DNA of 64,000 bases from positions 672,001 to 736,000 of the forward strand of contig CAVYIM010000004.1 in the NCBI GenBank assembly GCA_963768655.1, given 5' to 3'. A program made the position numbers and the translations under genes. The notes beneath the pieces are model-generated. The model was given only the letters and a program-made list of their open reading frames with translations. It did not search any database and was not told the DNA's origin. Shown here one piece after another: positions 4,464 to 50,525 of this stretch; the stretch's first letter is position 1, and the number at the start of each line of letters is the position of its first letter. The DNA is from an uncultured Chloroflexia bacterium (lineage in GTDB: Bacteria; Chloroflexota; Limnocylindria; Limnocylindrales; CSP1-4).

Positions 4464-4511
4464 CGGCCGCGAAGCAGCCTCGCGGCAGCCTCGTGGCAAG
4501 GAGATCATCGA

Positions 4512-4828
4512 ATGTGCCTCGGCATCCCCGGCAAGGTGGTGGAGATCAACGACGACGGTCCGCTTCGAATGGCCCGCGTCGATTTCGGTGGGGTGCGCAA
4601 GGAGGCCTGCCTCGCCTACGTGCCCGAGGTCCAGCTCGGCGACTACGTGATCGTCCACGTCGGCTTCGCCATCAGCCAGCTCGACGAGGAAGAGGCGCGC
4701 AAGACGCTCGAGATGCTGCGGGCCATCGACGCGGAGGGCGTGGCGCTGGAGCTCGGCTCGATGGGCGACGAGGCGGCGGCTTCGCAGCCGGCTGCGGCGG
4801 TGCCCCCACCCGCCGCGGGAGCCTCCTC

Positions 4829-4832
<4 letters not shown>
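4512..4832 (+). CDS. hypC: Hydrogenase maturation chaperone HypC
   Basis: MCLGIPG N-terminus, [12 protein letters not shown]. Confidence 0.97.
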
Positions 4833-5961
<1,129 letters not shown>

Positions 5962-5965
<4 letters not shown>

Positions 5966-8222: not shown

Positions 8223-8240
8223 TATGCGCAACTGCGCATA
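8223..8240. promoter_or_regulatory. Perfect palindrome, putative ArsR operator
   Basis: TATGCGCA-AC-TGCGCATA, 18 bp upstream of the ArsR start. Confidence 0.7.
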
Positions 8241-8258
8241 TATCCAACACTGCACGGC

Positions 8259-8642
8259 ATGGACGAGGTCTACAAGCTCCAGGCGGAAGTCCTGAAGACG
8301 CTCTCGAATCCGCGGCGGCTGGAGATCATCCACCTCCTCGCCGACGGTCCTCGTGAGGTCTGCAGGCTCGCCGAGGAAATGGGCATCAGCCAGCCCAACG
8401 TCTCGCAGCATCTGGCGCTCATGCGCTCAGCCGGAGTCGTCGAGGCGGAGCGCGATGGGCGCGAGGTGCGGTATCGGCTGAGCGATCCCGAGATCATCTG
8501 CGCCTGCGAGACGATGCGCGGCGTCCTCGTGCGCCGGCTATCGCGCATCTCGGCGGTCGCCACGCGCACCCCTGCCGAAGTCGTGGCCGGGCGCGCTGCG
8601 GCCGCCGCCGCCCAGACCGCCGCCGACCGGCCATCCAGCTGA
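8259..8642 (+). CDS. ArsR/SmtB family transcriptional regulator
   Basis: LKTLSNPRRLEII, SQPNVSQHLALMRSAGVV, RDGREVRYRL, with Cys in EVC and IICAC. Confidence 0.93.
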   Translation: MDEVYKLQAEVLKTLSNPRRLEIIHLLADGPREVCRLAEEMGISQPNVSQHLALMRSAGVVEAERDGREVRYRLSDPEIICACETMRGVLVRRLSRISAVATRTPAEVVAGRAAAAAAQTAADRPSS

Positions 8643-8650
8643 GGACCCCA

Positions 8651-9064
8651 ATGGACGAAACCATCTCGATCGTGCTCTTCTCCGGCACCGACGACAAGCT
8701 CCAGGCCGCCGCCGTCCTCGCCGCCGGGGCCGCCGCCCTGGGCCGGCCGGTCAAGATCTTCCTCCAGTATTGGGCGCTCGACGCCTTCCGGGCCGATCGA
8801 ATCATGTCCGACCACGGCCTGGCGCCTGAAGCTGGGGAGGCCGGCCGGGCCGCCGTCGACGCCGCCGCGAAGGCCGGCCAGGCTCGCTGGACTGACACAC
8901 TGCGCGCGGCCAAGGAGATCGGCGAGGTCGATATCCAGGCCTGCTCGCTCTCCATGGACATTCTCAAGCTCGAGCAGTCGGATCTGGATCCGCTCGTGGA
9001 CGGCGTCGAGGGTGTGGCAGCTTTCTACATCAATGCCGGCGAGGGCCAGATCATTTTCATCTAG
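8651..9064 (+). CDS. DsrE/DsrF-like sulfurtransferase (DsrE2/DrsE_2-type, short)
   Basis: ISIVLFSGTDDK..GAAALG..VKIFLQYWAL, conserved ACSLSMD cysteine, ends in IIFI. Confidence 0.85.
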   Translation: MDETISIVLFSGTDDKLQAAAVLAAGAAALGRPVKIFLQYWALDAFRADRIMSDHGLAPEAGEAGRAAVDAAAKAGQARWTDTLRAAKEIGEVDIQACSLSMDILKLEQSDLDPLVDGVEGVAAFYINAGEGQIIFI

Positions 9065-9134
9065 GAAACGAGAATCCGGTACCGCGCGGTGGCGGTCCGG
9101 AGCGCGACCACTTGCTGCGAAAGGACAGGACCAG

Positions 9135-9371
9135 ATGAGCAGTCTCGATATCAAGCTCAAGGTCGACGCCAGCGGCCTCTCGTGCCCGCTGCCGATTCTC
9201 AGGGCGACCCAGGGCATCAAGACCGTTGCCTCCGGCGAGCTCATCGAGGTCGTGGCAACGGACCCGGGCTCGGTCAAGGACTTCGCTGCATGGTCGGCCT
9301 CGACCGGCAACGCGCTCGTCGAGCAGGACTCCGCCAACGGTAAGTTCCGCTTCGTCCTTCGCCGCAAGTAG
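9135..9371 (+). CDS. tusA: Sulfur carrier TusA/SirA family protein
   Basis: VDASGLSCPLP motif, ATDPGSVKDFAAW. Confidence 0.92.
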   Translation: MSSLDIKLKVDASGLSCPLPILRATQGIKTVASGELIEVVATDPGSVKDFAAWSASTGNALVEQDSANGKFRFVLRRK

Positions 9372-9427
9372 GCCCACCCTTCCGGGCGTGGGGGCAGCCC
9401 GGCCGTCAGGAACGAAAGGATGCGAAT

Positions 9428-9925
9428 ATGCCCGCAGAGGCAGCCAGCAAGACCAAGAAGGTCTGCATCATCGCCTACAGTGGCGAGCTAGAGCCGACCT
9501 GGGCCTCCATGATCATCGCCTCGACCGCGGCCGCCATGGACATGGAGGTCTCGATCTTCGTGACGTTCTGGGGATTCCACGCCCTCGTGAAGGACAGCAG
9601 GCGTCTACCCGGCCGGAACTGGATGCAGAAGATGCTATCCGTCATGCAGAGGCCGGGGATCAGCCACCGCAAGCTCAGCAAGATGAACTTCATGGGCATG
9701 GGCCCGTGGATGATGTTCCAGCTCGCCAAGCAGTACAACGTCTCCAAGCCCAAGGACCTTCTCGCGATGTGCCAGGAGCTCGGGGTCAAGATCTACCCGT
9801 GCCAGATGACCATGGACCTCTTCGGGCTCAAGAAGGAGGACCTGATCGACGGCCTCGAGGATCCGGTCGGCGCGGCGACGATGCTGCAGCTGTCGACCGA
9901 GGCCGACTCCACGCTGTTCATCTAG
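9428..9925 (+). CDS. DsrE2-type sulfurtransferase
   Basis: IIASTAAAMDMEVSIFVTFWG, LSKMNFMGMG, IYPCQMTMDLFG, ends in TLFI. Confidence 0.9.
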   Translation: MPAEAASKTKKVCIIAYSGELEPTWASMIIASTAAAMDMEVSIFVTFWGFHALVKDSRRLPGRNWMQKMLSVMQRPGISHRKLSKMNFMGMGPWMMFQLAKQYNVSKPKDLLAMCQELGVKIYPCQMTMDLFGLKKEDLIDGLEDPVGAATMLQLSTEADSTLFI

Positions 9926-10062
9926 CCAATTCTGCGGGGGCCATCGGCGAGAAGCCCCTGGGGTGTTGACCGCAACCTGACGGTCGCTGGGCCACGCGCC
10001 GCATGGCGCGCGCAACGCGACGCCCGGGGCGGAACGGACCGGCGAGCCCGTACACTGCCGCC

Positions 10063-10977
10063 ATGATCGACTTCACGCCCAACCCTGTTGCCCTGGGACT
10101 CGGCCCGCTCGAGATCCGCTGGTACGGCCTCGCGTACGTGGCCGCAATCGCCGCCGGGACCTGGCTCGCCTTCCGCCTTGCGCGCCAGCGCGGTGAGCGC
10201 ACCGACATGCTCATCGATGGCCTGATCATCGTCGCCGTTGCGGCCCTCGTCGGCGGACGGGCGTATCACGTCATCGATCAGTGGGCCTACTACCAGAACC
10301 ATCTTGCCCAGATTGTCCTGCCGCCGTACAGCGGCCTGGGCATCTACGGTGGACTGTTCACGGGCATGCTGGCGGTTACCTGGCTCGTCCGTCACTACCA
10401 CGTCTCGTTCTGGCGCTGGGCCGACATCCTGGCCCCGTGCATCTTGCTGGCCCAGGCAGTAGGTCGGTGGGGCAACTATATGAACCAGGAGCTGTACGGC
10501 CCGCCGACGAACCTGCCCTGGGGCATCGCCATCCAGTGCCAGTACCGCGTGGCCGAATACGCCTGTCCGGCCGGTTCCGATCCGACGGCGACGCTCGGAC
10601 AGCATTTCACGCCGCTCTTCCTCTACGAGTCGATGCTGAGCCTGCTCGGCGTCGGCGTGATGCTCTTGCTGTGGCGCCGCTTCACGGCGCGGCGCCGCCT
10701 GCTCATCGCCGGCGATGTCGGCCTGCTCTACTTCGTCTGGTATGGCGTCGAGCGCAGCATTCTCGAAACGCTCCGCAGCGGGTGGAACTGGACTTTCTTT
10801 GGTCTCGCGACGGCGCAGATCGTGGGCCTGAGCGCGGCCGCCGCGGCGATCGTCGCCATTCTCGTTCGGCACTGGTGGGTGCGGCGTCACCCCGAGGGAG
10901 CCGATGGCGCTCCGGCTGAGGCCGCGCCACAGCTGGCAACCGCAGGGCCGAGATCGGGGTCAATCGAGATCGCGTAA
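10063..10977 (+). CDS. lgt: Prolipoprotein diacylglyceryl transferase (copy 1)
   Basis: GPLEIRWYG, GGRAYHVI, GLGIYGG, QAVGRWGNYMNQELYG, FLYES. Leaderless start with TACACT 6 nt before the ATG. Confidence 0.9.
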   Translation: MIDFTPNPVALGLGPLEIRWYGLAYVAAIAAGTWLAFRLARQRGERTDMLIDGLIIVAVAALVGGRAYHVIDQWAYYQNHLAQIVLPPYSGLGIYGGLFTGMLAVTWLVRHYHVSFWRWADILAPCILLAQAVGRWGNYMNQELYGPPTNLPWGIAIQCQYRVAEYACPAGSDPTATLGQHFTPLFLYESMLSLLGVGVMLLLWRRFTARRRLLIAGDVGLLYFVWYGVERSILETLRSGWNWTFFGLATAQIVGLSAAAAAIVAILVRHWWVRRHPEGADGAPAEAAPQLATAGPRSGSIEIA

Positions 10978-10986
10978 CGTCGACCG

Positions 10987-11349
10987 CTAGCGGAGGACGA
11001 AGATGCTCGTCAGCAGGATGAGCAGCACGGTCAGAGTTATGGCCGTGTAGAGCCGGTCCCCCTCGAGCGCGAAGCCCAGCACCGATGCCGCGACTCGTGT
11101 TACCGGTGTCGCCAGCAGGACCAGAAGGCCCAGCTGGACGACGGCGGCGGGTTCCAGGGCGGCCAGCCGGTCCGGCAGGTTGGAGAAGTTCGTCGTGGCG
11201 GCTGTGGATGCGGGTGCCGTACCCAGGAGCGAGCCCTGCCAGCCGACCGCCAGCGCCGCCGCGAAGCCGGCCCCGATGAGAGCCGCGCTGACGACCACGC
11301 CGGCGATCAGCACTGCACTGATCACCATTCTGAAACGCTCCGGCGTCAC
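10987..11349 (-). CDS. DUF1634-like membrane protein
   Basis: Three hydrophobic segments, GLLVLLATPVTRV motif, coupled (GTGA) to the upstream TauE gene, a typical pairing. Confidence 0.8.
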   Translation of the reverse strand: MTPERFRMVISAVLIAGVVVSAALIGAGFAAALAVGWQGSLLGTAPASTAATTNFSNLPDRLAALEPAAVVQLGLLVLLATPVTRVAASVLGFALEGDRLYTAITLTVLLILLTSIFVLR

Positions 11350-12188
11350 AGCCCGAACCCCAGACCACGGCCGATCGTCTCGATCCCGACAACCACGAGC
11401 ACCGGAAGAAAGACGAGCCGAACAGTGCGGTTCGATATCCGATGGAGAATCCTGGCGCCGATCAGCGCCCCGGCCAGCACGCCGAGCGCCACGGGAGCCG
11501 CTACCTGCGGGTCGATGTAACCACGACCCAGGTAAATGCCTGCCGAGGCTGCCGCCGTCACACCGATCATGAAGTTGCTCGTTGCCGAGCTGACCTTCAT
11601 CGGCAGGCGCATTGCTCCATCCATGGCGAGAACCTTGAGCACTCCAGAGCCGATCCCGAGCAGTCCGGACACCAGGCCTGCTATCCACATCAGCACGAAC
11701 CCGAGCGGAACGCGCCGCGCCGCGTACGGAACGTCGCGGTTCAGCTTGCGGTCCGGATAGGAGGACTCGAGACGAAGACGAGATGCCAGCACCGACGGCA
11801 GATCGACGGGCGGCGTCTCTTCTCCCATGCGCGCAACCTGCATGCCCGCCGATGCGAGCAGGATGATCCCGAGCAGCAGGTAGAGCAACGCCGGCGCCAC
11901 CGCGGCCGCCAGGAGTGCGCCGCAGACCGCCCCTGTGGTCGTCGCCAGCTCGAGAAACATGCCAACCCGCATGTCGGTCATGCGATCCCGGACATAGGCG
12001 GCGGCGGCGCCGGAGCTCGTGGCGATGACGGACACGATGCTCGCTCCTGCGGCCAGGTGGATGTCCACGCCGAAGCCGAACGTCAGGGCCGGGATGACCA
12101 GGATGCCGCCACCGACCCCCGCCAGAGCGCCTATGAGCCCTGCGGCGACACTGATCGCGAATACCCCAAGATCCGCAGCCGGGCTCAT
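11346..12188 (-). CDS. TauE/SafE family (sulfite exporter-like) permease
   Basis: GALAGVGGGILVIP and SGLLGIGSG repeats, KVSSATSNFMIGVTAAASAG, about 8 TM segments. Confidence 0.9.
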   Translation of the reverse strand: MSPAADLGVFAISVAAGLIGALAGVGGGILVIPALTFGFGVDIHLAAGASIVSVIATSSGAAAAYVRDRMTDMRVGMFLELATTTGAVCGALLAAAVAPALLYLLLGIILLASAGMQVARMGEETPPVDLPSVLASRLRLESSYPDRKLNRDVPYAARRVPLGFVLMWIAGLVSGLLGIGSGVLKVLAMDGAMRLPMKVSSATSNFMIGVTAAASAGIYLGRGYIDPQVAAPVALGVLAGALIGARILHRISNRTVRLVFLPVLVVVGIETIGRGLGFGL

Positions 12189-12227
12189 CGGGACAGCACT
12201 GCCATGTTGTCGCCCCTAGATCTGCAA

Positions 12228-12257
12228 CTTGCGCAAGTACGCAACTGCTGGTATCTT
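12228..12257. promoter_or_regulatory. Second putative ArsR operator plus extended -10, between divergent tauE and rhodanese
   Basis: TGCGCAAGTACGCA (12230-12243) matches 12/14 of the core of the 8223 palindrome and is followed by TGGTATCTT. Confidence 0.55.
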
Positions 12258-12351
12258 AGCTGACGCTCGGCGAGTTCGCCTGGTGATCCGCGACCGGGGT
12301 CACCGGTTCGTGGCGCACCAGGAACCACTCCACGTTGCATTGGAGCTGCTC

Positions 12352-12687
12352 GTGCATCTCTTCGCTCGGAACCCGACCCCTGAGATCGGAGTCGACGAGC
12401 TCGAGGATCTTCTCCGGCACGGAAGCGTGCGCGTCCTGGGTGTGCGCGAGGACTGGGAATTCCGCCGCGGCCGAGTGCCCGGGGCGATCAGCGTTCCACT
12501 GGGCCGCCTGGCGTCACAAGGGGAGGAGCTGCCGCGCGACAAGCCCTGGGTGGTCATCTGCCAGAGCGGCAACCGCAGCCTGGCGGCAACGGAGCTCCTG
12601 CTGAGCCGGGGCTTCGATGGCGCTGTCTCCGCCCGCGGCGGCACGAATGCCTGGGCTCGGGGCAATCGGCCGTTGGAGAGGGGCTGA
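12352..12687 (+). CDS. Rhodanese-like domain protein (cytoplasmic)
   Basis: VRE.WEF..GRVPGA, active-site loop ICQSGNRS, GGTNAW. GTG start after GGAG was chosen (ORF track starts at 12229). Confidence 0.88.
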   Translation: MHLFARNPTPEIGVDELEDLLRHGSVRVLGVREDWEFRRGRVPGAISVPLGRLASQGEELPRDKPWVVICQSGNRSLAATELLLSRGFDGAVSARGGTNAWARGNRPLERG

Positions 12688-12688
12688 C

Positions 12689-13318
12689 GTGGTCACCGAT
12701 CAGCGCCGGCTGGAATGGGACGAGCGCCACCGGGCAGGCGACTTCGAAGGCGAGGGGCCGAACTCCACCCTCATGCTGGGCCTGATGGGGCTGCGCCCGG
12801 GCAGTGCCCTGGAGCTTGCGTGCGGCAGCGGCACCAACGCCGTCTGGCTGGCCCGGCAGGGCTGGCGCACCACTGCCGTCGATTGGTCGCCAGTCGGTCT
12901 CGCCAATGGCAGATCCAAAGCGGACGAAGCCGGTGTTCAGGTCGATTGGCTGGAGCGCGATCTGTTCGCCTGGTCGCCGCCGGCCCGTCAGTTCGACCTG
13001 GTCGCCATCGTCTACCTGCACCTGCCGCCCGACGAACGCGGCCCTGCCTACTCGCGGGCCGCCGCGGCCGTGGCTCCCGGAGGGCGAATGCTTGTCGTGG
13101 GTCACGATCGCTTGCACGGCGCCGAGGGTCAGGGCGGACCCGATCCAGAGCGCCTGTTCACGGCCGACGAGATTGCCGCGGAGCTTCAGGCAGCCGATCC
13201 GGAGCTCGTCGTGGAACGGGCGGAAGTCGTGCGCAGGGTACCGTGGCCGGGCCGAGGCCCCATCGATTCACTTCTCATCGTCCGCCGTCCCCCAACTCGT
13301 GCGGCCCAGGCAGGATAG
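12689..13318 (+). CDS. Class I SAM-dependent methyltransferase (TehB/TPMT-like)
   Basis: WDERH, ALELACGSGTNAVWLA, AVDWS, FDLV, APGG. Confidence 0.85.
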   Translation: MVTDQRRLEWDERHRAGDFEGEGPNSTLMLGLMGLRPGSALELACGSGTNAVWLARQGWRTTAVDWSPVGLANGRSKADEAGVQVDWLERDLFAWSPPARQFDLVAIVYLHLPPDERGPAYSRAAAAVAPGGRMLVVGHDRLHGAEGQGGPDPERLFTADEIAAELQAADPELVVERAEVVRRVPWPGRGPIDSLLIVRRPPTRAAQAG

Positions 13319-13319
13319 C

Positions 13320-13802
13320 GTGGGCTCGCAGCGGCTTCCCGACCTGGGCCGGCGTGGGGAGGGCTGGTTCCTGATGCAGCTCGTCCTCTTCGGCGCCATC
13401 GCCCTCGCCGGCACCGTTGGTCCGATCTGGAGCGGCTGGCCCAGGCTGGCCAGCGTCCTTGTCGGCGCGGTTCTGCTCGGCTGCGGCGGGGTCCTGTCCC
13501 TGCGCGGAGTCCTGGACCTGCGCGAGAACCTGACGCCTTTTCCCAGGCCGCTGCCAGGCGCCCGTCTCGTCGAGTCGGGGGCCTACCGGCTGGTCCGACA
13601 TCCGATCTACGGCGGCTTGGTGCTCGGCGCGGCGGGCTGGGGTCTGCTGACGGCCTCCGCCCTGGCCCTGCTCGGCACCCTGGTGCTGGTGGCCTTCTTC
13701 GATCTCAAGTCGCGCCGCGAGGAGATCTGGCTATCCGCCCAGTTCGAGGACTATGGCACGTACAGGAGCCGGACCCGGCGGCTGCTACCCTGGCTCTACT
13801 AG
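13320..13802 (+). CDS. Isoprenylcysteine carboxylmethyltransferase/PEMT family membrane methyltransferase
   Basis: LVESGAYRLVRHPIYGG, REEIWL..FEDYGTYRSRTRRLLP, 4 TM segments. Confidence 0.85.
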   Translation: MGSQRLPDLGRRGEGWFLMQLVLFGAIALAGTVGPIWSGWPRLASVLVGAVLLGCGGVLSLRGVLDLRENLTPFPRPLPGARLVESGAYRLVRHPIYGGLVLGAAGWGLLTASALALLGTLVLVAFFDLKSRREEIWLSAQFEDYGTYRSRTRRLLPWLY

Positions 13803-14407
13803 CGGTTCTTGTTGACCAGAGTCCGACCCGACGCCTGCCAGGCGTTCATCCCGCCCGTCAGGTTCCAGACATTGGTGTAGCCGAGGTTCAGGAGCGTCTG
13901 GGCGGCCTGGGCGCTCTGAACCCCGCTCCGGCAGTAGACCAGGATCTTGGCGTTCTTGTCGGCTGGCAACTCCGAAGCCCGTGCCGTCAGCTGGTCGTAG
14001 GGGATGTAGAGATCAGTGCCGTCGATCTCGCCGCTGTACGGCGTCTTCACGTTGATCAGCGTGAAATCCTTGTCCTGGAGCATCTGGGCCAGCTGGTCGG
14101 GAGTCACGTTGGTCCACGTGGAGACGCGCGTGGGACCCGCTGCTCCCAACTGGCTCGCGCTGGCGAGCACCGTCCCTGTGGCGGTCGAACTGCCACCCTG
14201 GTTGGCGATCGCGCCCATCACGAAGTCGGCGGCAATTACGACCACTGATATCAGAACGAGCGTGACGATGAGGAGGCCCATCTGGCCGCGTCCGCCCATC
14301 TGTGACGGGGGCGCCGGGCGCGGCGCTCGAGGGGCCTGGCTCGAGCTGTCAGGCTGCGGCGCGATTCGGCCTGCCTTCTCCGGATGCTGGCGACGCTTCG
14401 AAGTCAC
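13799..14407 (-). CDS. Membrane-anchored rhodanese-like domain protein
   Basis: Basic N-terminus, one TM (LLIVTLVLISVVVIAADFVMG), S/T/G linker, VYCRSGVQS active loop, GGMNAW. Confidence 0.85.
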   Translation of the reverse strand: MTSKRRQHPEKAGRIAPQPDSSSQAPRAPRPAPPSQMGGRGQMGLLIVTLVLISVVVIAADFVMGAIANQGGSSTATGTVLASASQLGAAGPTRVSTWTNVTPDQLAQMLQDKDFTLINVKTPYSGEIDGTDLYIPYDQLTARASELPADKNAKILVYCRSGVQSAQAAQTLLNLGYTNVWNLTGGMNAWQASGRTLVNKNR

Positions 14408-14440
14408 GATCCCATCTCCATCGGTCCTGAAGGATCGTAA

Positions 14441-15580
14441 CTACCCGCGCAAGCGGATCGCGATCAGAGCAACAGGCCGGTACAGGACGTGGGCGAACTT
14501 GCCGAACGGCACCAGAAGCACGAGGGCCATCGCGACGCCGACGTGAAGCAGGAACATCGGGTAGCCCCATGCCGGAGCCGAGGGCAGGTAGAGCCCGAGC
14601 TCCAGCAAGAACCCGGTCACACCCGCCACCCACAGCATTCCCAGGAACGTCCAGTCGGGCGTGGTCGAGTGCAGGCTGGATCGATCGCTCTTGCGCAACC
14701 GTCGGACGATCAGCACCGTTGTGCCATAAATGAGGGCTGCTCCTGCCAGAGTGCCAAGCAGGCGCACCGGGTACCAGATCGGCACCGGCGTCCCGGTCGC
14801 CTTCAGGCCCAGGAGCTCGAGTCCGTAGTCGGCCATCGTGGCGCCCAACAGGCCCAGGAAGCCCCACATGGTCGTGAAATGGATGAACCAGCGCTGCAGG
14901 TACCACGGCCGAGATTCGGTCGCGTCGGCACACTCCTGCCGGAAGCGCGTCTGCGCGAGCGATTCGGTGCCCACGGCGTAGACAACGGCGTCGGCCGCTC
15001 TGCGGACGCCGGGTCTGCCAATCGTCTTGCCCTGGCCGCGGCCGACGTGCCGGATCATCTCGAACAGGCCGGCAAGCGCCGCCACTCCCATGATCGCCAT
15101 GACGCCCACACCCAGGTTGTGGACGAAGTCAGACGGGACGAACTGGAAGAGGGTCAGCGTCGAGCCGTCTGTCGGGCCATGGACGGAATACATGAAGGCC
15201 GCGAGGAGGCCGACGAGGGCAACGATGAAGACGCCGGCGAACCAACGCGACGTAGCCAGGAGGTAGGCCAGGTGGGTTCGGTCGTAGCTGGCCACGGCAT
15301 AGCGGCGGGCCGCGTGCATGAACGAGGCCGGATCGGCCTGGGTCGGGCAGCTCTCGCTGCACTCGGCGCAGCCGTAACAGGCCCACAGCTCCGGGCTGGA
15401 CAGCAGCTGGTCGCGGAGACCGAGCTGAGCGTAGCGGGCCATGCGTCGCGGGAACGAGGCTCCATCCACGGAGAGCGGACAGATGGCCGTGCAGACGCCG
15501 CAGTTGAAGCACGCGGAGATGTCGGTGGCGCCGAAGCGACGCAGATCCGGATAGAGGTTGTGGTCGACTCGGGCGGTCAC
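14441..15580 (-). CDS. QmoC-like subunit: HdrC-type 2x[4Fe-4S] domain plus cytochrome b (NarI-like) membrane domain
   Basis: CFNCGVCTAICP and CYGCAECSESCP, about 6 TM segments, with His in FVHN, WFIHF, LLHV and GKFAHVLYRP. Confidence 0.85.
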   Translation of the reverse strand: MTARVDHNLYPDLRRFGATDISACFNCGVCTAICPLSVDGASFPRRMARYAQLGLRDQLLSSPELWACYGCAECSESCPTQADPASFMHAARRYAVASYDRTHLAYLLATSRWFAGVFIVALVGLLAAFMYSVHGPTDGSTLTLFQFVPSDFVHNLGVGVMAIMGVAALAGLFEMIRHVGRGQGKTIGRPGVRRAADAVVYAVGTESLAQTRFRQECADATESRPWYLQRWFIHFTTMWGFLGLLGATMADYGLELLGLKATGTPVPIWYPVRLLGTLAGAALIYGTTVLIVRRLRKSDRSSLHSTTPDWTFLGMLWVAGVTGFLLELGLYLPSAPAWGYPMFLLHVGVAMALVLLVPFGKFAHVLYRPVALIAIRLRG

Positions 15581-15828
15581 GGCCGGGCCTCCTTTTGCAC
15601 GGCGAAGTACCGGAAGTAGCCCTCGGGCGTGGCTTCCTTGACCTCGCGCACGTAGCCGTAGCGGCGCATGCCCATGACCCAGTACATGGCCTCGTTGGCC
15701 GGACGCCCGATCGCCTCCGCGATCTCGGGAACGGTGTGGGGCCCGTCGGCGAGGACCCCGAGGATGCGGTCCCGCATGAATGGCTCCTCTCGGACGATCT
15801 CTCGAACGTCCCTGTTGGCTGACGTCAT
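15577..15828 (-). CDS. Small winged-helix protein embedded in the Qmo/Hdr operon
   Basis: RDRILGVLADGPHTVPEIAEAIG...MRRYGYV, with 4-nt overlaps to both neighbours. Confidence 0.75.
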   Translation of the reverse strand: MTSANRDVREIVREEPFMRDRILGVLADGPHTVPEIAEAIGRPANEAMYWVMGMRRYGYVREVKEATPEGYFRYFAVQKEARP

Positions 15829-17591
15829 GCGATCGCCTCCTCGAGCAGGCCGTCGATCATGGCCGTGATCTGGGCGTCGGTGTAGCCGCGCAGGTCGATG
15901 GCGTTCTCCGGGCAGATAGGGACGCATCCACCGCAGCCCTTGCAGCCGGTCTGGCTGATCGCGGCGACCTCACGGCCGTTGAGCGACAGCTTCTCAATGG
16001 CGCCATAGGGGCAGGCGTTCTCGCACTTGCCGCACCAAGTGCATCTGTCCGGGTCCACCGTGGCCACTAGCGGGTCGAGCTCGGCGACTCCCTTCTTCAG
16101 CACCGAGGCGCTCTGGGTCACTGCGGCCAGACCCGAAGCCACGCTCTCCGCGGAGCTCTTGGGCCCCTGGCAGGCACCGGCGATCAGGACGCCGTCGACG
16201 ACGGTCTCGACCGGGCGCAGCTTGGGGTGGATCTCGTTGAAGAAGCCGTCGCTGCCGAGGGGCAGCTTGAGCAAGCCCACGAGGTCTTTGTTCTCGCGGG
16301 GGACCATGCCGGTGACCAGGACCACGAGGTCGACCGGAATCTCCAGTTCCTCATCGCCCGAGAGCAGGTCCCGGACGGTGACCGCCAGCCCGCCGGACCG
16401 GTCCGCGGTGACGACCGGTGGGGCGTCGTCGGGGTACTTGACGTAGACGGCGCCGTCCTTGCGGGCCTCGGTGTACAGGAGCTCGAGCGAGCCGTAGGTC
16501 CGGATGTCTCGATAGAGGTGGTACTGCCGCATCCCGGGGTCAAGCTCGGAGACTCGGATGGACGAGTGAGCCGTCGCCGCACAGCAGTACCGCGAGCAAT
16601 ACTCGTTGCCGTCTGGCTGGCGGCTGCCCACGCAGTAGATGTAGGCGACGCTGCGAACCGGCCTGTCGTGATAGCGCAGCTGTCCGTCGGCCCCGTCGAT
16701 CATCTCCTTGAACTCGGGCAGGGCCACGACACCGTCCATTCCGGCACCGAACTCACCATCGGCCGGCTGGTAAGAGTCGAAGCCGGTGGCGACGATGATC
16801 GAGCCGACCTCGATCGGGATCGTCTGTAGGGGATCGCCGTCGATTTGGACGCCGACCTGGTAGTTTCCGAAGCTGCCCGACTTGCTGACGACCTCGGCGC
16901 CGGTGAAGACCTTGATTGCTGGCCTCTTCCTGACCTCGGCGACGAGATGGTCGATCAGCTCGCGGCCGTTGCGCTCGTGCGGGTAGGTATTCCCGAAGCG
17001 TCCGACCCAGCCGCCCAGCTCACGCTCGCGCTCTACCAGGAAGACGCCCAGACCGACGTCGGCCAGGCCGATCGCGGCGCGGAGGCCGGAGATTCCACCA
17101 CCGATCACCAGGGCCTTCTGGGCCGTTTCGACCACGATCGGTTCCAGGGGTTCGCTCAGGCGGGTGCGGGCAATGACCCCGCGGACGAGGCCGATGGCCT
17201 TGCGGGTGGCCCCGGCAGGATCGTCGGTGTGAGTCCACGAGCATTGCTCGCGAATGTTGGCCTGGCTGTACTCGTAGGGGTTGAGCCCCGCGCGTTTGGC
17301 CACGCCACGGAAGGTCACGACGTGGAGCTTGGGCGAACAGGAGGCGACGACGAGGCCGTCGAGTCCCTGCTGCTCGATGTCCTGTTCCATCTCCTGCTGG
17401 CCCGCGTCAGAACAGGCGAACATCGTGTGCTTGGCGACGACGACGCCTGGCTCGTTCTTGACGGCGTCGACGACGGCCTGGACATCCACGTAGTCCGAGA
17501 TGTTGCCGCCGCAGTGGCAAACGTAGACACCGATTCGTCGCGCGGTCGGGCTCGGCGAAGCGAACGGGTGATCCTGCGAGAGCTCGCTCAT
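15825..17591 (-). CDS. HdrA/QmoB-like flavoprotein
   Basis: IGVYVCHCG..ACSD..SCSP..EQC N-terminal domain, GGGISG FAD motif, CVGSR..CSRYCC, HPKLRPV, C-terminal CTWCGKCENACP and CKGCGGCVPICP. No fused MvhD. Confidence 0.92.
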   Translation of the reverse strand: MSELSQDHPFASPSPTARRIGVYVCHCGGNISDYVDVQAVVDAVKNEPGVVVAKHTMFACSDAGQQEMEQDIEQQGLDGLVVASCSPKLHVVTFRGVAKRAGLNPYEYSQANIREQCSWTHTDDPAGATRKAIGLVRGVIARTRLSEPLEPIVVETAQKALVIGGGISGLRAAIGLADVGLGVFLVERERELGGWVGRFGNTYPHERNGRELIDHLVAEVRKRPAIKVFTGAEVVSKSGSFGNYQVGVQIDGDPLQTIPIEVGSIIVATGFDSYQPADGEFGAGMDGVVALPEFKEMIDGADGQLRYHDRPVRSVAYIYCVGSRQPDGNEYCSRYCCAATAHSSIRVSELDPGMRQYHLYRDIRTYGSLELLYTEARKDGAVYVKYPDDAPPVVTADRSGGLAVTVRDLLSGDEELEIPVDLVVLVTGMVPRENKDLVGLLKLPLGSDGFFNEIHPKLRPVETVVDGVLIAGACQGPKSSAESVASGLAAVTQSASVLKKGVAELDPLVATVDPDRCTWCGKCENACPYGAIEKLSLNGREVAAISQTGCKGCGGCVPICPENAIDLRGYTDAQITAMIDGLLEEAIA

Positions 17592-20305
17592 GCCGGCACC
17601 TTCTGGCTTTCGAGATGGGCCGCGACCTGGGCTACCGCAGCGCCGGCGTGGACGATCGAGTCGGCGATGTCCTTGGCACCGGACGCCGTGCCGGCGACGA
17701 ACACCCCAGGGATGCTCGTGCGTCCGGGGTCGATGTCGTCGTACGACTCGGCGACGTAGTGGTATTCGTCGAGGGCGAGGTCGTCGCCGATGAAGAGCCG
17801 CTCGACCTCACGGTTCGGCTGAACGCCGACCGCCAGCACGACCAGGTCGTACTCGGCCTCGACCAGCGCCCCGCCATGCTCGATGTCCTCGTAGCGCAGG
17901 ATCAGGTTGCCGTCTTCCTTCTCTGTGATCTTCGCTACCCGACCCTTGACGTACGTCGCGCCCATCGACTTGGCGCTCTCGTAGAACTCGTCGTAGCGCT
18001 TGCCCGGCGCCCGAATGTCCATGTAGTGGACCGTGACTTCGGCGAGCGGTAGAGCGCCCATGATCAGCTGGTTCTGCTTGATGGAGTACATGCAGCAGAA
18101 CCGTGAGCACAGAGGGTTTCCGACGGTCTCGTCGCGCGAGCCGGTGCACAGAACGTAGGCGATCCGTTCCGGGATCTTCCCGTCGCCGGGCCGCAGCACG
18201 GTGTTGTACGGCCTCGTGGGAGCGAGCAGGCGGTCCATCTGCATGCCGGTGATCACGTTCTTGAATCGGCCATAGCCGTATTCGGGCTTCAGATCCGCCG
18301 CGAACAGCTTGTAGCCGGTGGCGACGACCACGGCGCCGACGCGGACCTCCTCGACCTTCTCCCGCATCTCGAGGTGGATGGCGTCGGACGGGCAGGCCAC
18401 GACGCACGCCCGGCATTCCGAGCAGACGCCGCAGTCCAGGCAGTCGCCCGCGCTGGCCCGGGCCTCGGCTTCGCAAAGGGGCGCTTCGATCTCGGCGAAG
18501 TCGCGCGGCGAGCGGGCACCGGCGCCGGGGCCAGCCCGGAGCGGCCCGCTGTGGTTGTCGTAGTGCGCCTGGCGGGCGATGACTTTCGACTTGTCGACCA
18601 GCGGCAGCAGGTCGTCCATTTCGAACCCGTCGAGCGGCTCGCCGCGCAGCCAGCGGTCGATCATGTGGGCCGCCCGCCGGCCCTGCCCGACGGCGCGGGT
18701 GATGTCCGAGGCGCCGGTCGTAACGTCGCCAGCGGCGAAGATGTGAGGAACGGCCGTCTGGAGAGTATGCGGATCGGCGGCGACAGCGCCGTTCGGAGTG
18801 GCGGCCACCTGAGCGCCGAAGGCCGCGCCTTCGGGCGCCATTCCGATCGCCACCAGCACCGTGTCGCAAGGGATGACGAACTCGCTGCCCCTGACGGGCT
18901 CGGGGCGGCGACGGCCCGAGGCATCGGGCTTGCCCAGAGCCGTGCGCTGGCAGCGGAGACCGGTGACCTTGCCCGCGGCATCGCCGAGGACCTCTACCGG
19001 GGCGACCTGGAATGCGAAGCGGACACCATCCTGCTCGGCGTCGTCGACCTCGGCCCTGTGGGCGGGCATCTCCCCGCGGCCGCGACGGTAGGCGATCGTG
19101 GTCTCGGCGGCGCCGAGGCGGACGGCCGTTCGGGCCGCGTCCATGGCGACATTGCCGCCGCCAACGACCACGACACGCTTCCCGGTAAGATCGCCGCCGG
19201 AGCCGAGCTTCGTCGCCCGCAGGAACCGCAGGCCGCCGACGATGCCGTCGAGTGTCTCGCCCGGCACGTTGAGGGCCGTGGAGAGCGGGGTGCCGGTCGC
19301 GACCAGGACGGCGTCGAAGCCTTCTCGACGGAGGGCTTCGAGGTCGCCGACCGGCGAATTGGTGGCGATCTCAACGCCGACGGCGGTGACGTTGGAGATG
19401 TCCTGCTCGACGACCTCGGGCGGGAGACGGTATGCCGGGATGGCCAGGCGCAGGAAGCCGCCGGCAACGGGCGCGGCCTCGAAGATCTTGACACCGTAGC
19501 CCCGGCGAGCCAGCTGCCAGGCGGCGGTCAGTCCCGCCGGGCCGGAACCCACGACGGCGACGCGCTTGCCGTTGCTCGGCGGGACTTCCACGCCGGGTCC
19601 GTCCGTCGCTTCGTAATGCCTGTCGGCCGCGAAGCGCTTCAGGCGCCGGATCGGAAGAGTTCCCTCGAGCGAGCCGCGCGTACACTCGCCCTCGCACGGG
19701 GCGTAGCAGGCGCGACCGAGCGTGCCGACGAGCGGCGTCGCCTCGAGCACGAGCTGGAACGCCTTCTCATACTCGCCGCTGCGGATCAGCGACACGTAGC
19801 CGTGGGCCTTGATTCCGGCGGGACAGCTGAAGGTGCACGGTGAGGTTCCGGCGCGCTCGAGGACGGCTTTCTTGGGCACTGCCTGCGGGAACGTGATGTA
19901 GGCAGCCCGGCGGGCGACCAGGTCGGCGTTGAACTGGTCTGGCACCGCGACCGTGCAGGCGGTTTCGCACAGCTGGCAGCCGGTGCAGGCCGCCTCATCG
20001 ACAAAACGTGGCTTCTGACGGATGGTTGCCCTGAAGGTGCCGTCGCCATCGCGAGTGATGCCGTCCACCTCGGTATAGGTGAGGGCGGTCACGTTCGGGT
20101 GGTGGATCGAGGCCGCCATCTTCGGCGTGGAGATGCAGCTGGCGCAGTCCAGGGTGGGGAAGACCTTGCTGAGCAGGATCATCCGCCCGCCCACGCTGGC
20201 CTCCTTCTCCACCAGCAGGACCTTGTAGCCCATGTCGCCGAGCTTGAGGGCGGACTCCATGCCGGCAATGCCGCTGCCGACGACGAGGGCGTCGTAGTCG
20301 GTCAT
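17588..20305 (-). CDS. HdrA/QmoA-like flavoprotein with inserted ferredoxin and GltD-like NAD(P)H oxidoreductase module (HdrL-like)
   Basis: GSGIAG, FPTLDCASC, CTGCQLCETAC; then SPCTFSCP..GRACYAPCEGEC, GSGPAG, GGGNVAMD..YRR; then CLDCGVCSECRACVVACP and HdrA CTGSRD..CSRFCC. Start MTDY at 20305. Confidence 0.92.
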   Translation of the reverse strand: MTDYDALVVGSGIAGMESALKLGDMGYKVLLVEKEASVGGRMILLSKVFPTLDCASCISTPKMAASIHHPNVTALTYTEVDGITRDGDGTFRATIRQKPRFVDEAACTGCQLCETACTVAVPDQFNADLVARRAAYITFPQAVPKKAVLERAGTSPCTFSCPAGIKAHGYVSLIRSGEYEKAFQLVLEATPLVGTLGRACYAPCEGECTRGSLEGTLPIRRLKRFAADRHYEATDGPGVEVPPSNGKRVAVVGSGPAGLTAAWQLARRGYGVKIFEAAPVAGGFLRLAIPAYRLPPEVVEQDISNVTAVGVEIATNSPVGDLEALRREGFDAVLVATGTPLSTALNVPGETLDGIVGGLRFLRATKLGSGGDLTGKRVVVVGGGNVAMDAARTAVRLGAAETTIAYRRGRGEMPAHRAEVDDAEQDGVRFAFQVAPVEVLGDAAGKVTGLRCQRTALGKPDASGRRRPEPVRGSEFVIPCDTVLVAIGMAPEGAAFGAQVAATPNGAVAADPHTLQTAVPHIFAAGDVTTGASDITRAVGQGRRAAHMIDRWLRGEPLDGFEMDDLLPLVDKSKVIARQAHYDNHSGPLRAGPGAGARSPRDFAEIEAPLCEAEARASAGDCLDCGVCSECRACVVACPSDAIHLEMREKVEEVRVGAVVVATGYKLFAADLKPEYGYGRFKNVITGMQMDRLLAPTRPYNTVLRPGDGKIPERIAYVLCTGSRDETVGNPLCSRFCCMYSIKQNQLIMGALPLAEVTVHYMDIRAPGKRYDEFYESAKSMGATYVKGRVAKITEKEDGNLILRYEDIEHGGALVEAEYDLVVLAVGVQPNREVERLFIGDDLALDEYHYVAESYDDIDPGRTSIPGVFVAGTASGAKDIADSIVHAGAAVAQVAAHLESQKVPA

Positions 20306-20748
20306 GACTTCGCTCCGGCAGATCGGAGCGCAATCAAAGCTTCCGAGAACTGGTTCATGTGCCTGGCGAAGTTCTCGGCGCAGACCGAGCAGATGGCCGC
20401 CATCTTCAGCCGCTGCGGTGAGAGGCCCTCCGACTTCAGCAGCGTCTGTGCCTCGGCGACGATCCTCGACGCCCGCCTGGCGCAGTCGGGCAGGTAGGCG
20501 CACTCGTCCCCGTCCGAGGCGATGAAGACGCCCTCGAATCCCTGCTTGATGGCGTGAAGGATCCACGACGGACGGATGCCGCTGGTGCAGGGCACGCTGA
20601 TGACGCGTACCCCGGGCGAGTAGTGCAGGTGGGCGCTGCCGGCCAGGTCGATGCCCGGGTCGGAGATGTTGTTGGTGGAGAACACGAGAATCCGCGGTGC
20701 TGGCGCCGGGACCTTCTCGTCCACCGGGGCGGCGGCGAGCGCGGTCAT
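20302..20748 (-). CDS. MvhD/FlpD-like subunit with non-canonical cysteine pattern
   Basis: RILVF...GIDLAG...YSPGVRVISVPCTSG..ILHAIKQGFEGVFI...ECAY...QRL matches the MvhD fold. The N-terminal CCxWC is absent and a C-terminal CSVC is present. Confidence 0.8.
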   Translation of the reverse strand: MTALAAAPVDEKVPAPAPRILVFSTNNISDPGIDLAGSAHLHYSPGVRVISVPCTSGIRPSWILHAIKQGFEGVFIASDGDECAYLPDCARRASRIVAEAQTLLKSEGLSPQRLKMAAICSVCAENFARHMNQFSEALIALRSAGAKS

Positions 20749-20821
20749 CGATCCAATGCTCCTGCGTGGGTTTGAGAAGGCCGAGCCGAAGGGGCGGCCT
20801 GCCGATCGAGAGCCCGGTCGA

Positions 20822-21085
20822 CTACTTGCCGCGCCGAATGAAGACGCGGTCGTAGCCGTCAGCCTCGATGACACCGAGAAATTCGTGGCCTACCTTGTCT
20901 GCCCATGCGCCCATGTCCGTCTTGGTGACGGGGTCGCTAGACCAGACCTCGATGACGTCGCCCACGGCGACCTTGCCCATGCCCTTCTTGGCCTCGAGGA
21001 GCGGGCCCGGGCATGCGGAACCGCGGGCGTCGATGATCTCGGCGGCTGATATCGTTTCGAGCTCGGCTACGTTCAGGGCGCTCAT
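20822..21085 (-). CDS. tusA: Sulfur carrier TusA/SirA family protein (second)
   Basis: IDARGSACPGPLL, SSDPVTKTDMGAW. Confidence 0.9.
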   Translation of the reverse strand: MSALNVAELETISAAEIIDARGSACPGPLLEAKKGMGKVAVGDVIEVWSSDPVTKTDMGAWADKVGHEFLGVIEADGYDRVFIRRGK

Positions 21086-21108
21086 GGCTCTCTCCGTATG
21101 TGGGTGGA

Positions 21109-21474
21109 CTAGTAGGTCAGGGCGTTGGTGGCCGAGGTCAGCTCGGCGACGAACCGCGCGGCGGCCACGACCTCCGCGTTCTCGACCAGCTGAGTGGCCG
21201 TGTCGATCTGGCGCGACTTGACGCACGGTCCGCAGATGAGGATCTTGCCGCCCAGCTCGCGGTAGTCGTTCATGAGCTTGGCAAGCGGCGGGAACCCCTC
21301 GGCCGCGACCGAGTCGGCGCGTCCCTTGACCGCGATCTCTACACCATCTGCCTGGAGCCCGATGACCGCTTCGACATCCGAGACCAGGGCGGCGACTGCC
21401 ATCACGAAGGGGATCGTGACGTGCTCGGGATGATCCGGACCGTGCGTGACCATGAAGAGCAGCTTTTCGGACAT
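21109..21474 (-). CDS. DsrE family protein
   Basis: KLLFMVTHGPDHPE..PFVMAVAAL..LQADGV, ILICGPCVKSR (CxxC). Confidence 0.88.
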   Translation of the reverse strand: MSEKLLFMVTHGPDHPEHVTIPFVMAVAALVSDVEAVIGLQADGVEIAVKGRADSVAAEGFPPLAKLMNDYRELGGKILICGPCVKSRQIDTATQLVENAEVVAAARFVAELTSATNALTY

Positions 21475-21516
21475 CGGTTCTCATTGCCTCCAATGGGTGA
21501 CGATACGATCGGGTGG

Positions 21517-21891
21517 TCAGAGCGTGGGTTCGATTGCCTCGGGGGTCGCCTGCGTCGAGCTCTCGAATGAAGCGGCCAGATCGCCGAGCCGGGCGATCCG
21601 CCGGATGAGCACCTGCCGCATCAGCCCGCACGCGGCCACGATCTCGGGATCGGCGAGCCGGTATCGGACCTCGCGGCCGTCTCGCACGGCTTCAACGATG
21701 CCGACGCCACGAAGAGCTGCGAGGTGCTGGGAGATGGCTGGCTGCGGCATGCCGAAGTGTTCGGCGAGCTTGCGGACCTCGACCGGGCCCGCCTCGCCCA
21801 GATAGTGGACGAGCTCCAACCGCCGTGGGCTGGCCAGCGTCTTTAGGAGGGTGGCCTGCAGGGCGTATATGCCGTCGGCCGGTCGCAACAT
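21517..21891 (-). CDS. ArsR/SmtB family transcriptional regulator (paralog of 8259)
   Basis: LKTLASPRRLEL, QPAISQHLAALR, RDGREVRYRLADPEIVAAC. Confidence 0.92.
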   Translation of the reverse strand: MLRPADGIYALQATLLKTLASPRRLELVHYLGEAGPVEVRKLAEHFGMPQPAISQHLAALRGVGIVEAVRDGREVRYRLADPEIVAACGLMRQVLIRRIARLGDLAASFESSTQATPEAIEPTL

Positions 21892-22135
21892 CGTCAGTCC
21901 TCTCGCTTTCAGTTCGCAGACCGGAGCCTCGCTCGCCTTCGCCCGATCAGGACGGGCCCGGCATCACGATGATCTCCAGGCGAGCATGTATGCGTGATCC
22001 ATGAATAGATCTTGCGATTGCATATGACTACATGCCGAATGTCACGTCCCTGTCGTCCTTCGGCCCAAACTCGCCGGAACGCAAGCGAGCGGCTGGCTGC
22101 CGGGCGTTTCGAGGCGCCCGCCCTACAATCGCGCT

Positions 22136-23506: not shown

Positions 23507-23548
23507 CCGCCGCACCCGCGTCGACCCGGCCGCCGCCGGCGTTTCGGT

Positions 23549-25963: not shown

Positions 25964-26072
25964 GACCGTCCCTTTCGTGAACTGAGGGCGCGCCGGAGAC
26001 TGATTCCCCAGCTGACCCTGTGCGCGATGGACGGTCGGCCGACCGGCGCCGGAGTCCCCTCCGACGTCAAGA

Positions 26073-26102
26073 AGAATAGGGATTCTCTATTCTCTTTGTC
26101 AA
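26073..26102. promoter_or_regulatory. TetR operator palindrome overlapping the MMPL promoter
   Basis: AGAATAGGGA-T-TCTCTATTCT (26073-26093, 9/10 arms). On the minus strand, TTGACA (26102-26097) is followed 18 bp later by TATTCT. Confidence 0.7.
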
Positions 26103-26186
26103 CTACCCGTCTCGCGGGACGGCTCCGTTTGAATTGCCCGGCGGTCGGGATATGATGGGGAACGGCGATTCCCTTTGTGGTGAGGC

Positions 26187-50513: not shown

Positions 50514-50525
50514 CCGGTTCCCGGA

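Follow-up and report, generated by a model that had tools for sequence, protein, structure and literature searches.

A TusA-linked Qmo/HdrL-type gene island with a proposed sulfur redox function in an uncultured Chloroflexia bacterium

The island and the closest described systems

QmoABC works as a feeder of AprAB and is genetically and functionally tied to AprAB and Sat (ATP sulfurylase), and TauE and sHdrR have roles as companions of the sHdr system. Here, a gene island was analysed that lies in a 64,000-nucleotide stretch of DNA from an uncultured Chloroflexia bacterium (the window; G000:C4:672001-736000) and combines sulfur carrier genes of the TusA type with genes for a complex of the Qmo/HdrL type. 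In sulfate reducers and certain sulfur oxidisers, the alternative of QmoABC and QmoAB-HdrCB is known (PMC10504309, PMC6397845), an HdrA-like 'type II Qmo' was described by Neukirchen et al. in 2023 (PMC10504309), and HdrL, an HdrA that carries a GltD-type NAD(P)H module and whose gene neighbours mvhD, was defined in PMC2702500 and is mentioned in PMC12142623. A survey of the Chloroflexi mentions only hydrogenase-linked HdrABC. No published description of an operon of the order tusA-mvhD-hdrL-hdrA-wHTH-qmoC (wHTH, winged helix-turn-helix) was found in full-text literature searches, and such or related gene contexts may be contained in subscription reviews, in Supplementary Figs 11-13 of PMC10504309 or in Fig. 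S3 of PMC2702500. HdrL and type II Qmo are already in print, and the operon presented here appears to be a widespread Qmo/Hdr variant.

The window belongs to an assembly of 3.37 Mb in 9 contigs with a completeness of 88.6%, has a G+C content of ~69%, and the best named relatives of its proteins are those of 'Candidatus Limnocylindrales bacterium' (88% identity). The TusA-linked Qmo/HdrL-type gene island was confirmed as real. It covers ~13.8 kb (8223-22010) and consists of two convergent ArsR-led operons around lgt, tauE/DUF1634, two rhodaneses and two methyltransferases. This arrangement had been put forward in the original prediction from the letters alone, and every gene was recovered when the proteins were scanned with Pfam and NCBIfam models; likewise, the order of the right operon, arsR-dsrE-tusA-mvhD*-hdrA/gltD-hdrA-wHTH-qmoC followed by a membrane rhodanese, was borne out. 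The cluster was found to be no isolated orphan, as it belongs to a widespread clade; its fused subunit is of the published HdrL type (PMC2702500). In the favoured reading as a whole, for which the probability is put at roughly 0.48, the complex would link NAD(P)H, menaquinone and a TusA persulfide, with the CSVC motif of the MvhD-like subunit (MvhD*) in the role of HdrB. The features of the right operon are as follows (E-values in brackets; aa, amino acids):

21517-21891, minus strand: arsR2, ArsR/SmtB-family regulator, 124 aa (HTH_5, 2.7e-13)
21109-21474, minus strand: dsrE, 121 aa, with a CGPC motif (DsrE, 1.1e-13; solved relative 3mc3, 4e-4)
20822-21085, minus strand: tusA2, 87 aa, with a DARGxACPGP motif (TusA, 2.7e-18)
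20302-20748, minus strand: mvhD-like gene (MvhD*), 148 aa (FlpD, 6.8e-29)
17588-20305, minus strand: hdrL, HdrA with a GltD/NfnB-type NAD(P)H-FAD-2x[4Fe-4S] insert, 905 aa (GltD and HdrA2 models)
15825-17591, minus strand: hdrA, flavoprotein, 588 aa (HdrA2 model positions 1-230, HdrA model positions 322-653)
15577-15828, minus strand: wHTH protein, 83 aa, no cysteine (TrmB, 1.4e-4; HTH_20, 2.5e-4)
14441-15580, minus strand: qmoC-like gene, HdrC-type 2x[4Fe-4S] domain and NarI/HdrE-like membrane domain (qmoC model, 5.3e-57)
13799-14407, minus strand: membrane rhodanese with the active site CRSGVQS, last gene of the operon (Rhodanese, 1.3e-14)

The start of MvhD* at 20748 is supported by homologs of 147-148 aa, HdrL has 905 aa and not the 992 aa of its open reading frame (ORF), with an identical 905-aa protein on record and a 75%-identical HdrL that one source assigns to Thermaerobacter sp., and the start of the wHTH gene is at 15828, behind an out-of-frame stretch rich in Arg, Pro and His. 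With these refined starts, overlaps of 4 nt are present at mvhD/hdrL, hdrL/hdrA, hdrA/wHTH and wHTH/qmoC, by which the right operon was shown to encode a predicted translationally coupled complex of the five subunits MvhD*, HdrL, HdrA, wHTH and QmoC. The five products are probably made in a fixed ratio, and, judged by the coupling, the wHTH protein is more likely a subunit than a free regulator. Its invariant residues are P34, E35, M52, Y57, Y71 and Y74; an assignment as DsrD-like or as another known small subunit was rejected, the sequence matching only generic wHTH models. A fusion of TusA to any subunit was looked for among 150 representatives and not found.

The cofactor modules that had been proposed are all present. 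NAD(P)H-binding and GltD models match residues 140-650 of HdrL, and the HdrA2 model matches on both sides of this insert (including residues 621-899), so that both modules of the proposed hdrA/gltD fusion exist, while the fusion is not end to end: the GltD module lies inside HdrA, with an FlpD-type mvhD directly upstream, as in HdrL. The cysteine sets are invariant in an alignment of 14 HdrL proteins. HdrL is missing the N-terminal and C-terminal ferredoxin domains of HdrA, and the 588-aa HdrA, which has both and is without the inserted ferredoxin domain, thus complements it; in many cluster representatives the two are fused into proteins of ~1480-1530 aa, which argues that HdrL and HdrA form one unit. 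QmoC aligns with the qmoC model over residues 9-373 of 379 and has 5-6 hydrophobic segments. The 8 cluster cysteines are kept in all sequences covering them (9 aligned full-length relatives); of the five conserved histidines, His134 and His154 are found in 8/9 and His234, His346 and His364 in 9/9 relatives, and the membrane domain is probably di-haem. The terminal rhodanese has one N-terminal membrane helix (hydrophobic residues 38-70).

With QmoABC and QmoAB-HdrCB the complex shares two HdrA-type flavoproteins (both HdrL and the 588-aa protein match HdrA models), the architecture of QmoC (an HdrC-like 2x[4Fe-4S] part on a membrane domain with conserved histidines), and, among its relatives, the natural swap of QmoC for HdrC plus a CCG protein. 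It differs from QmoABC by the separate mvhD with rewired cysteines, the NAD(P)H module on one flavoprotein, the wHTH subunit and TusA/DsrE as fixed parts of the operon, and by a QmoC that scores 193.9 bits against the NCBIfam cut-off of 300.

The same set of modules (GltD insert, two HdrA flavins, QmoC), in an operon without HdrB or a sirohaem or molybdenum catalytic subunit, would also suit a pure electron-carrier enzyme, i.e. a bifurcating or confurcating NAD(P)H/ferredoxin/menaquinone oxidoreductase without a sulfur substrate, comparable to a membrane-bound Nfn or EtfABCX; TusA, DsrE and the rhodaneses would then be merely co-regulated or serve another need. This explanation is considered unlikely in view of the operon's distribution.

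Linkage to TusA and rewiring of MvhD

In order to trace the operon, a profile built from 14 aligned HdrL proteins was scanned over one genome per species. At least 599 matching stretches were obtained, of which 562 were confirmed as relatives; 80 loci were kept and searched by tblastn with the window proteins, and all group counts below refer to the loci listed among these. Group A comprises 15 loci with 50-75% identity to HdrL from about ten phyla, with records from Chloroflexia, Actinomycetota, Gaiellales, Thermoleophilia, Ignavibacteriales, Aminicenantes, Bacteroidales, Zixibacteria, Deferrimicrobium, Acidobacteriota and a Thermoplasmata archaeon. Group B comprises 65 loci with 35-46% identity (Desulfobacterota, Anaerolineae, Dehalococcoidia, Bacillota and others) which have the order hdrL-hdrA-mvhD, a canonical MvhD and mostly no full-length QmoC. 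In a FastTree phylogeny of 63 full-length HdrL sequences, from which the partial sequences of L016 and L023 and matches with internal stops were left out, the 14 group-A tips form one clade with a support of 1.0. In a wider sample of 401 genomes of the phylum (4 of them unpublished and none of these among the positives), HdrL with at least 60% identity was found in 18, and a QmoC of this family in 26 of the 31 sampled genomes of the window's genus.

Conservation of the tusA/dsrE linkage had been named as a test of the original prediction, and tusA was indeed found directly before mvhD* in all 14 group-A loci with upstream DNA, with an intervening arsR in L014. At least one DsrE-type gene was present in 9/14 loci and an ArsR gene adjoining the operon in 9/14, and where the sequence extends downstream of hdrL (11 loci), hdrA plus the wHTH gene were present in 10, L015 being the exception. 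In the 65 group-B loci, tblastn detected no tusA and no wHTH gene. The classical HdrL loci of group B have in common with the window an HdrA that contains a GltD-type NAD(P)H module and is encoded beside mvhD, with a putative function in both, whereas gene order, MvhD type and lack of detectable tusA and wHTH genes set them apart and the clade of the window is a separate branch.

The cysteines of MvhD were compared in an alignment of the window and 13 group-A loci with 43 group-B sequences. The first cysteine of the canonical N-terminal CxxC is present in 43/43 group-B and 0/14 group-A sequences, the second in 36/43 and 0/14, and the cysteine of the 'GC' motif in 32/43 and 0/14. Two cysteines common to both groups are kept in group B and in 14/14 group-A sequences. 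Conversely, Cys131, Cys162 and Cys165 (numbered in the 190-aa ORF of MvhD*), including the motif ICSVCAE, were found in 14/14 group-A and 0/43 group-B sequences. When searched for by regular expression, CS[VI]C was present in 14/14 group-A loci, in 6/6 congeners and in the window, and in 0/55 group-B MvhD matches. A divergent subtype of the operon is located at the same genomic site in the congener G478 (L094; G478:C37:40000-58100); its HdrA is without the GltD insert, and its MvhD-like protein (36% identical) has lost most other cysteines, AICSVC being the only surviving cysteine motif. This subtype, having no NAD(P)H module, would still need a cytoplasmic substrate besides the quinone. CS[VI]C is thus the feature that all TusA-linked operons have in common.

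TusA, the wHTH protein and the CS[VI]C-type MvhD co-vary across the HdrL loci, which supports the favoured reading. Chance or loose co-regulation, as the pure electron-carrier enzyme would need, explains poorly that tusA precedes mvhD* in 14/14 loci from about ten phyla and was found in 0/65 sister loci; the co-variation of the MvhD rewiring with TusA and the control of the operon by cysteine-bearing ArsR regulators likewise speak against that explanation.

In the favoured reading, NAD(P)H would enter at the GltD insert, the quinone would be met at QmoC, and the HdrA flavins would connect the two. Bifurcation or confurcation at the two HdrA-type flavins may be involved, ferredoxin being the low-potential partner. 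The third substrate would be sulfane sulfur, carried as a persulfide on TusA after loading by rhodanese and DsrE, and the invariant CSVC dithiol of MvhD* would handle it (TusA-SSH + 2e- <-> TusA-SH + H2S), thereby doing the job of HdrB in classical Hdr; there is a slight lean to reductive release of sulfide as the direction. As the constant neighbour, TusA is the best candidate for the third partner, and the chances that it is this partner, loaded by rhodanese/DsrE and handled at the CSVC motif, are considered about even. In TusA2, D19, A20, R21, C25, P26, G27 and P28 are invariant among relatives, and its best solved relative is Thermoplasma Ta1170/Ta1414 (8e-17). Both electron bifurcation and persulfide chemistry are what we infer from sequence.

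A more specific version appears doubtful, namely a bifurcating sulfide/persulfide oxidoreductase in which electrons are split or joined between menaquinone and NAD(P)+/ferredoxin, with TusA-persulfide as the substrate and the CxxC dithiol of MvhD* replacing the HdrB site. The potentials are about -270 mV for S0/HS-, -74 mV for menaquinone and -450 mV for ferredoxin. Since the S0/HS- potential lies midway between the other two, such an enzyme would stand in for sulfide:quinone oxidoreductase while conserving energy or, in fermenters, would serve as a confurcating sulfur reductase.

Several points weigh against the favoured reading. The five invariant cysteines of MvhD* may be nothing more than Fe-S cluster ligands in a different arrangement. 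Reduction of a persulfide by NAD(P)H could do without quinone and bifurcation, which leaves the need for three partners unexplained, and the tauE gene of the island points to sulfite, a product that two-electron persulfide chemistry does not make. In L015, which comes from an Actinomycetes metagenome-assembled genome (MAG) and branches deepest in the clade, HdrL stands alone: hdrA, the wHTH gene and qmoC are missing from the 10 kb downstream, and the contig has just 142 bp upstream. Finally, in the congener G473 the site that holds the island in the window, between the hypE-like gene and the aminotransferase gene, carries only the left half (arsR1 to the ICMT-like methyltransferase gene), and a divergent QmoC is encoded elsewhere in that genome. 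Since the left module stands without the complex at this site, the carriers have a life of their own, which is also a point for the pure electron-carrier enzyme.

The membrane end of the complex varies within the clade. QmoC is encoded in the window and in L007, L008, L010 and L017, and clustering of neighbouring ORFs combined with Pfam revealed in L009, L011, L012, L018, L071 and L084 an HdrC-like ferredoxin of ~100 aa together with a protein of 322-404 aa with a CCG domain (E-values of 1e-9 to 1e-13). These CCG proteins are divergent, contain one CCG domain only and are distantly like TfrB, LdhH and DsrK. The two forms are interleaved in the HdrL tree and TusA is constant, so the missing HdrB is a variant feature: the QmoC end interchanges with the HdrC plus CCG end. 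The claim that HdrB is missing accordingly holds for the window, where no CCG domain and hence no catalytic HdrB of the HdrABC type was found, and does not hold for the clade, in which six loci carry HdrC plus a CCG/HdrB-like protein. The constant core is TusA, MvhD*, the two HdrAs and the wHTH protein.

These six relatives bear on an sHdr-like oxidation, in which sulfane sulfur from TusA/DsrE would be oxidised to sulfite, with electrons passed to quinone and NAD(P)+ and the sulfite exported by TauE. The accessory genes fit, as TusA, DsrE and rhodanese carriers, an ArsR-type regulator and a TauE-type exporter next to an Hdr-like core are also the company of sHdr-LbpA, with DsrE3 as its DsrE protein (PMC11094781). 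The core, however, is HdrL/HdrA/MvhD*/QmoC and not sHdrAB1B2C1C2, the QmoC variant including the window has no CCG protein (sHdrB1/B2) in its operon, and the CCG proteins of the relatives are the divergent single-domain ones. Moreover, a gene for a lipoate-binding protein was not noticed in the island (no genome-wide search for lbpA was made), and there is no evident catalytic site for a four-electron, oxygen-adding step. Such an oxidation is thus regarded as quite improbable.

Sulfur markers and HdrB in the rest of the genome

The lack of aprA, dsrA, sat and soxB noticed earlier for the window was found to extend to the genome. At its completeness of 88.6% and with the thresholds used, the best match to AprA reached 29 bits against a cut-off of 642, and DsrA, ATP sulfurylase (PF01747), DsrC/TusE, SoxB and the NIR_SIR domain were not found. 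The link to AprAB/Sat that marks QmoABC is therefore not seen here. PF04143 (YeeE/YedE) had no match anywhere in the genome, which distinguishes the island from the YTD cluster (yedE-tusA-dsrE plus hypothetical genes; PMC9676032), and the only TusA-family genes of the genome are the two of the island. With neither NIR_SIR nor PF01747 found in the genome, the lineage may depend on reduced sulfur, and it seems unable to reduce sulfite at all, NIR_SIR being present in only 1/101 genomes of the window's class. The idea that carriers of the operon in particular lack sulfite reductase was dropped, because the class lacks NIR_SIR throughout and no contrast is possible; among 15 carriers of other lineages, 6 with and 9 without the domain give no clear link. 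The genomes of L012 and L018 (G461 and G466), both with the HdrCB form of the operon, each contain two adjacent ORFs with NIR_SIR domains, arranged as in DsrAB.

CCG proteins are encoded at three places in the genome, none within the window. HdrB is part of a complete operon hdrC-hdrB-hdrA-mvhD-mvhG-mvhA-protease-hypA at C4:162.4-170.2 kb (L087), 500 kb from the island, which encodes an Mvh-type [NiFe] hydrogenase with HdrABC. With its own HdrA and HdrC and a canonical MvhD, this operon is self-sufficient. In the sample of 31 congeners, with incomplete genomes, HdrB was found in 16 and not found in 10 of the 26 with QmoC; 2 had HdrB without QmoC and 3 had neither. The genome thus does encode an HdrB, as the original prediction had considered, and its role as an obligate partner of the complex was not supported because of the 10/26 QmoC-bearing congeners in which it was not found.

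These data also concern a Qmo-like feeder for a separate enzyme encoded elsewhere, perhaps the Mvh-HdrABC of the genome itself. The closest characterised relative, QmoABC, serves AprAB (PMC10504309), the genome has the hdrCBA-mvhDGA operon, and hyp genes adjoin the island. With the AprA, DsrA and Sat searches as given, canonical HdrB not found in 10/26 QmoC-bearing congeners, and an hdrCBA-mvhDGA operon that brings its own HdrA, HdrC and MvhD, a feeder role is judged very unlikely.

The core operon recurs in Chloroflexota, Actinomycetota, Acidobacteriota, Bacteroidota, Ignavibacteriales, Zixibacteria, Aminicenantes and a Thermoplasmata archaeon, and given this spread over many phyla, sulfur and electrons may flow through it along a path that has been overlooked. 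The carrier lineages are abundant in soil, freshwater and sediment, are without the Apr, Dsr and Sox markers by which sulfur metabolism is scored, and are not counted as sulfur cyclers. If carrier-bound sulfane sulfur is processed as proposed in the favoured reading, there would be a hidden link between sulfur, quinone and NAD(P)H in those habitats as well as a new active-site solution in the Hdr/Qmo enzyme family. Handles for experiments are offered by the pair of operator sequences and the CSVC motif, as well as by natural variation of the operon, which occurs with a QmoC or an HdrCB end and with or without the GltD insert.

Regulators, left operon and neighbourhood of the island

The left operon, the genes between the operons and the two candidate operator sites are listed below:

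8223-8240, no strand: putative ArsR1 operator, 18-bp perfect palindrome TATGCGCA-AC-TGCGCATA, 19 bp before the arsR1 ATG
8259-8642, plus strand: arsR1, ArsR/SmtB-family regulator, 127 aa (HTH_5, 1.1e-16; HTH_metalloreg, 92 bits)
8651-9064, plus strand: DsrE-like protein of the DrsE_2 family, 137 aa (PF13686, 4.7e-16)
9135-9371, plus strand: tusA1, 78 aa, with a CPLP cysteine motif (PF01206 match)
9428-9925, plus strand: DsrE2-like protein of the DrsE_2 family, 165 aa (PF13686, 7e-46)
10003-10977, plus strand: lgt paralog (LGT, 9.9e-58)
10987-11334, minus strand: DUF1634 membrane protein, TauE partner, with membrane helices (PF07843, 4e-22)
11346-12188, minus strand: TauE/SafE-family anion exporter (sulfite exporter family) with many membrane helices (PF01925, 2.8e-50)
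12229-12687, plus strand: soluble single-domain rhodanese with the active site CQSGNRS (Rhodanese, 2.3e-15)
12617-13318, plus strand: S-adenosylmethionine (SAM)-dependent methyltransferase (Methyltransf_25, 2.2e-16; TehB, 1.8e-4; TPMT, 3.4e-4)
13359-13802, plus strand: ICMT/PEMT-family membrane methyltransferase, 147 aa, with membrane helices (PEMT, 1e-9; ICMT, 5.6e-6)
21986-22010, minus strand: candidate arsR2 box ATCTATTCAT-N5-CACGCATACAT, an imperfect inverted repeat unlike the ArsR1 site

Position 8223, at which the original prediction had let the island begin, is the first base of the palindrome. This palindrome is the sole copy in the window, at least two matches occurred in 0/100 shuffles, and its half-sites are identical before arsR1 in 6/6 congeners with the left operon, only the 2 central bases varying. 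The arsR2 box was also found before arsR2 in L091, L092, L093 and L094, with perfect 8-bp arms in L092. A shared operator for ArsR1 and ArsR2 was rejected, as the two sites differ, and for the same reason the left and right operons are probably under separate control.

ArsR1 and ArsR2 are 59% identical; ArsR1 has the cysteines Cys35, Cys80 and Cys82, and ArsR2 has a single cysteine in helix 5. The best solved relative of ArsR1 is Rv0081, with BigR and SqrR ranking next, and the match to the BigR model (59.8 bits) is under the cut-off of 155. The ArsR fold, the helix-5 cysteine and the location beside sulfur-handling genes are shared with SqrR/BigR. Sensing of the SqrR/BigR type was nevertheless rejected for the window proteins, in which the pair of helix-2 and helix-5 cysteines is not found: in ArsR1, His25 occupies the aligned position of BigR's N-terminal sensing cysteine, and ArsR2 has one cysteine only. 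The helix-5 'AC' cysteine is common to the ArsRs by group-A operons (ArsR1 and ArsR2 of the window, L007, L009, L012, L018 and L023), and the four related ArsRs of L009, L012, L018 and L023 pair it instead with an extra helix-1 cysteine that is not present in the window ArsRs. At L009:8828-9559 (Gaiellales MAG), a single open frame runs through ArsR and TusA without an intervening stop, an isolated case that is either a regulator-carrier fusion or an assembly error.

The order arsR-dsrE-tusA-dsrE2 proposed for the left operon was reproduced by the Pfam and NCBIfam matches. A hydrophobic segment was looked for in the 165-aa DsrE2-like protein and none was predicted; it scores 90.6 bits with the DsrE2 model, under the cut-off of 210. 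The 137-aa DrsE_2 protein has copies of 83-91% identity at the same place in congeners, and TusA1 matches the NCBIfam TusA model PRK00299 with 1.1e-11 and 44 bits, under the cut-off of 78. Together with TauE/DUF1634, the soluble rhodanese and the two methyltransferases, the left operon (ArsR1, two DrsE_2 proteins and TusA1) appears to be a separable carrier/export module with an operator of its own.

The PF07843 match of the DUF1634 protein falls in the C-terminal part of the ORF 10987-11688. No membrane helix was predicted for the soluble rhodanese (12229-12687), the true start of which is probably downstream of 12229, congeners aligning only from residue 25-50 onward. The SAM-dependent methyltransferase, weakly similar to TehB/TPMT, is retained in congener islands and also present in L007 and L011, and the 147-aa methyltransferase matches the isoprenylcysteine methyltransferase model with 1.3e-11, under the cut-off. 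The rhodanese, the TehB/TPMT-like SAM methyltransferase and the ICMT-family methyltransferase travel as a trio (window 12229-13802; L090-L095), which in relatives sits behind a third arsR. This third arsR precedes the soluble rhodanese gene in G471, G473, G474, G475 and G478 and is missing in the window. By analogy with the ICMT-family MddA, which methylates methanethiol, the trio might methylate sulfide or thiols. Within the island, lgt is present in the window and G475 alone (L096 among the congener loci), and a second lgt, 74% identical to that of the island, lies in the window near 49563-50528. In the right operon dsrE is optional, as it is absent from the operons L092 and L093 (G471 and G477).

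Among congeners, the island moves as a block. In the window it is located between a hypE-like gene and a class-III aminotransferase gene, and the block is at the same site in G441, G471, G477 and G478. In G474 and G475 these flanking genes are ~540-650 bp apart and the block is elsewhere in the genome, on one contig and in the same order in G474 and on contigs C23 and C124 in G475; a deletion of the island from these two genomes was accordingly rejected. In L093 (G477:C17), HdrL, HdrA and QmoC each match in two pieces, for which frameshifts or assembly errors may be the reason. The left flank in the window (1941-7071) contains hypF, hypC and the hypE-like gene directly beside the island. On the right flank (22136-26843), the class-III aminotransferase, an MMPL transporter and a TetR regulator are encoded, and no link of these genes to the island was seen.

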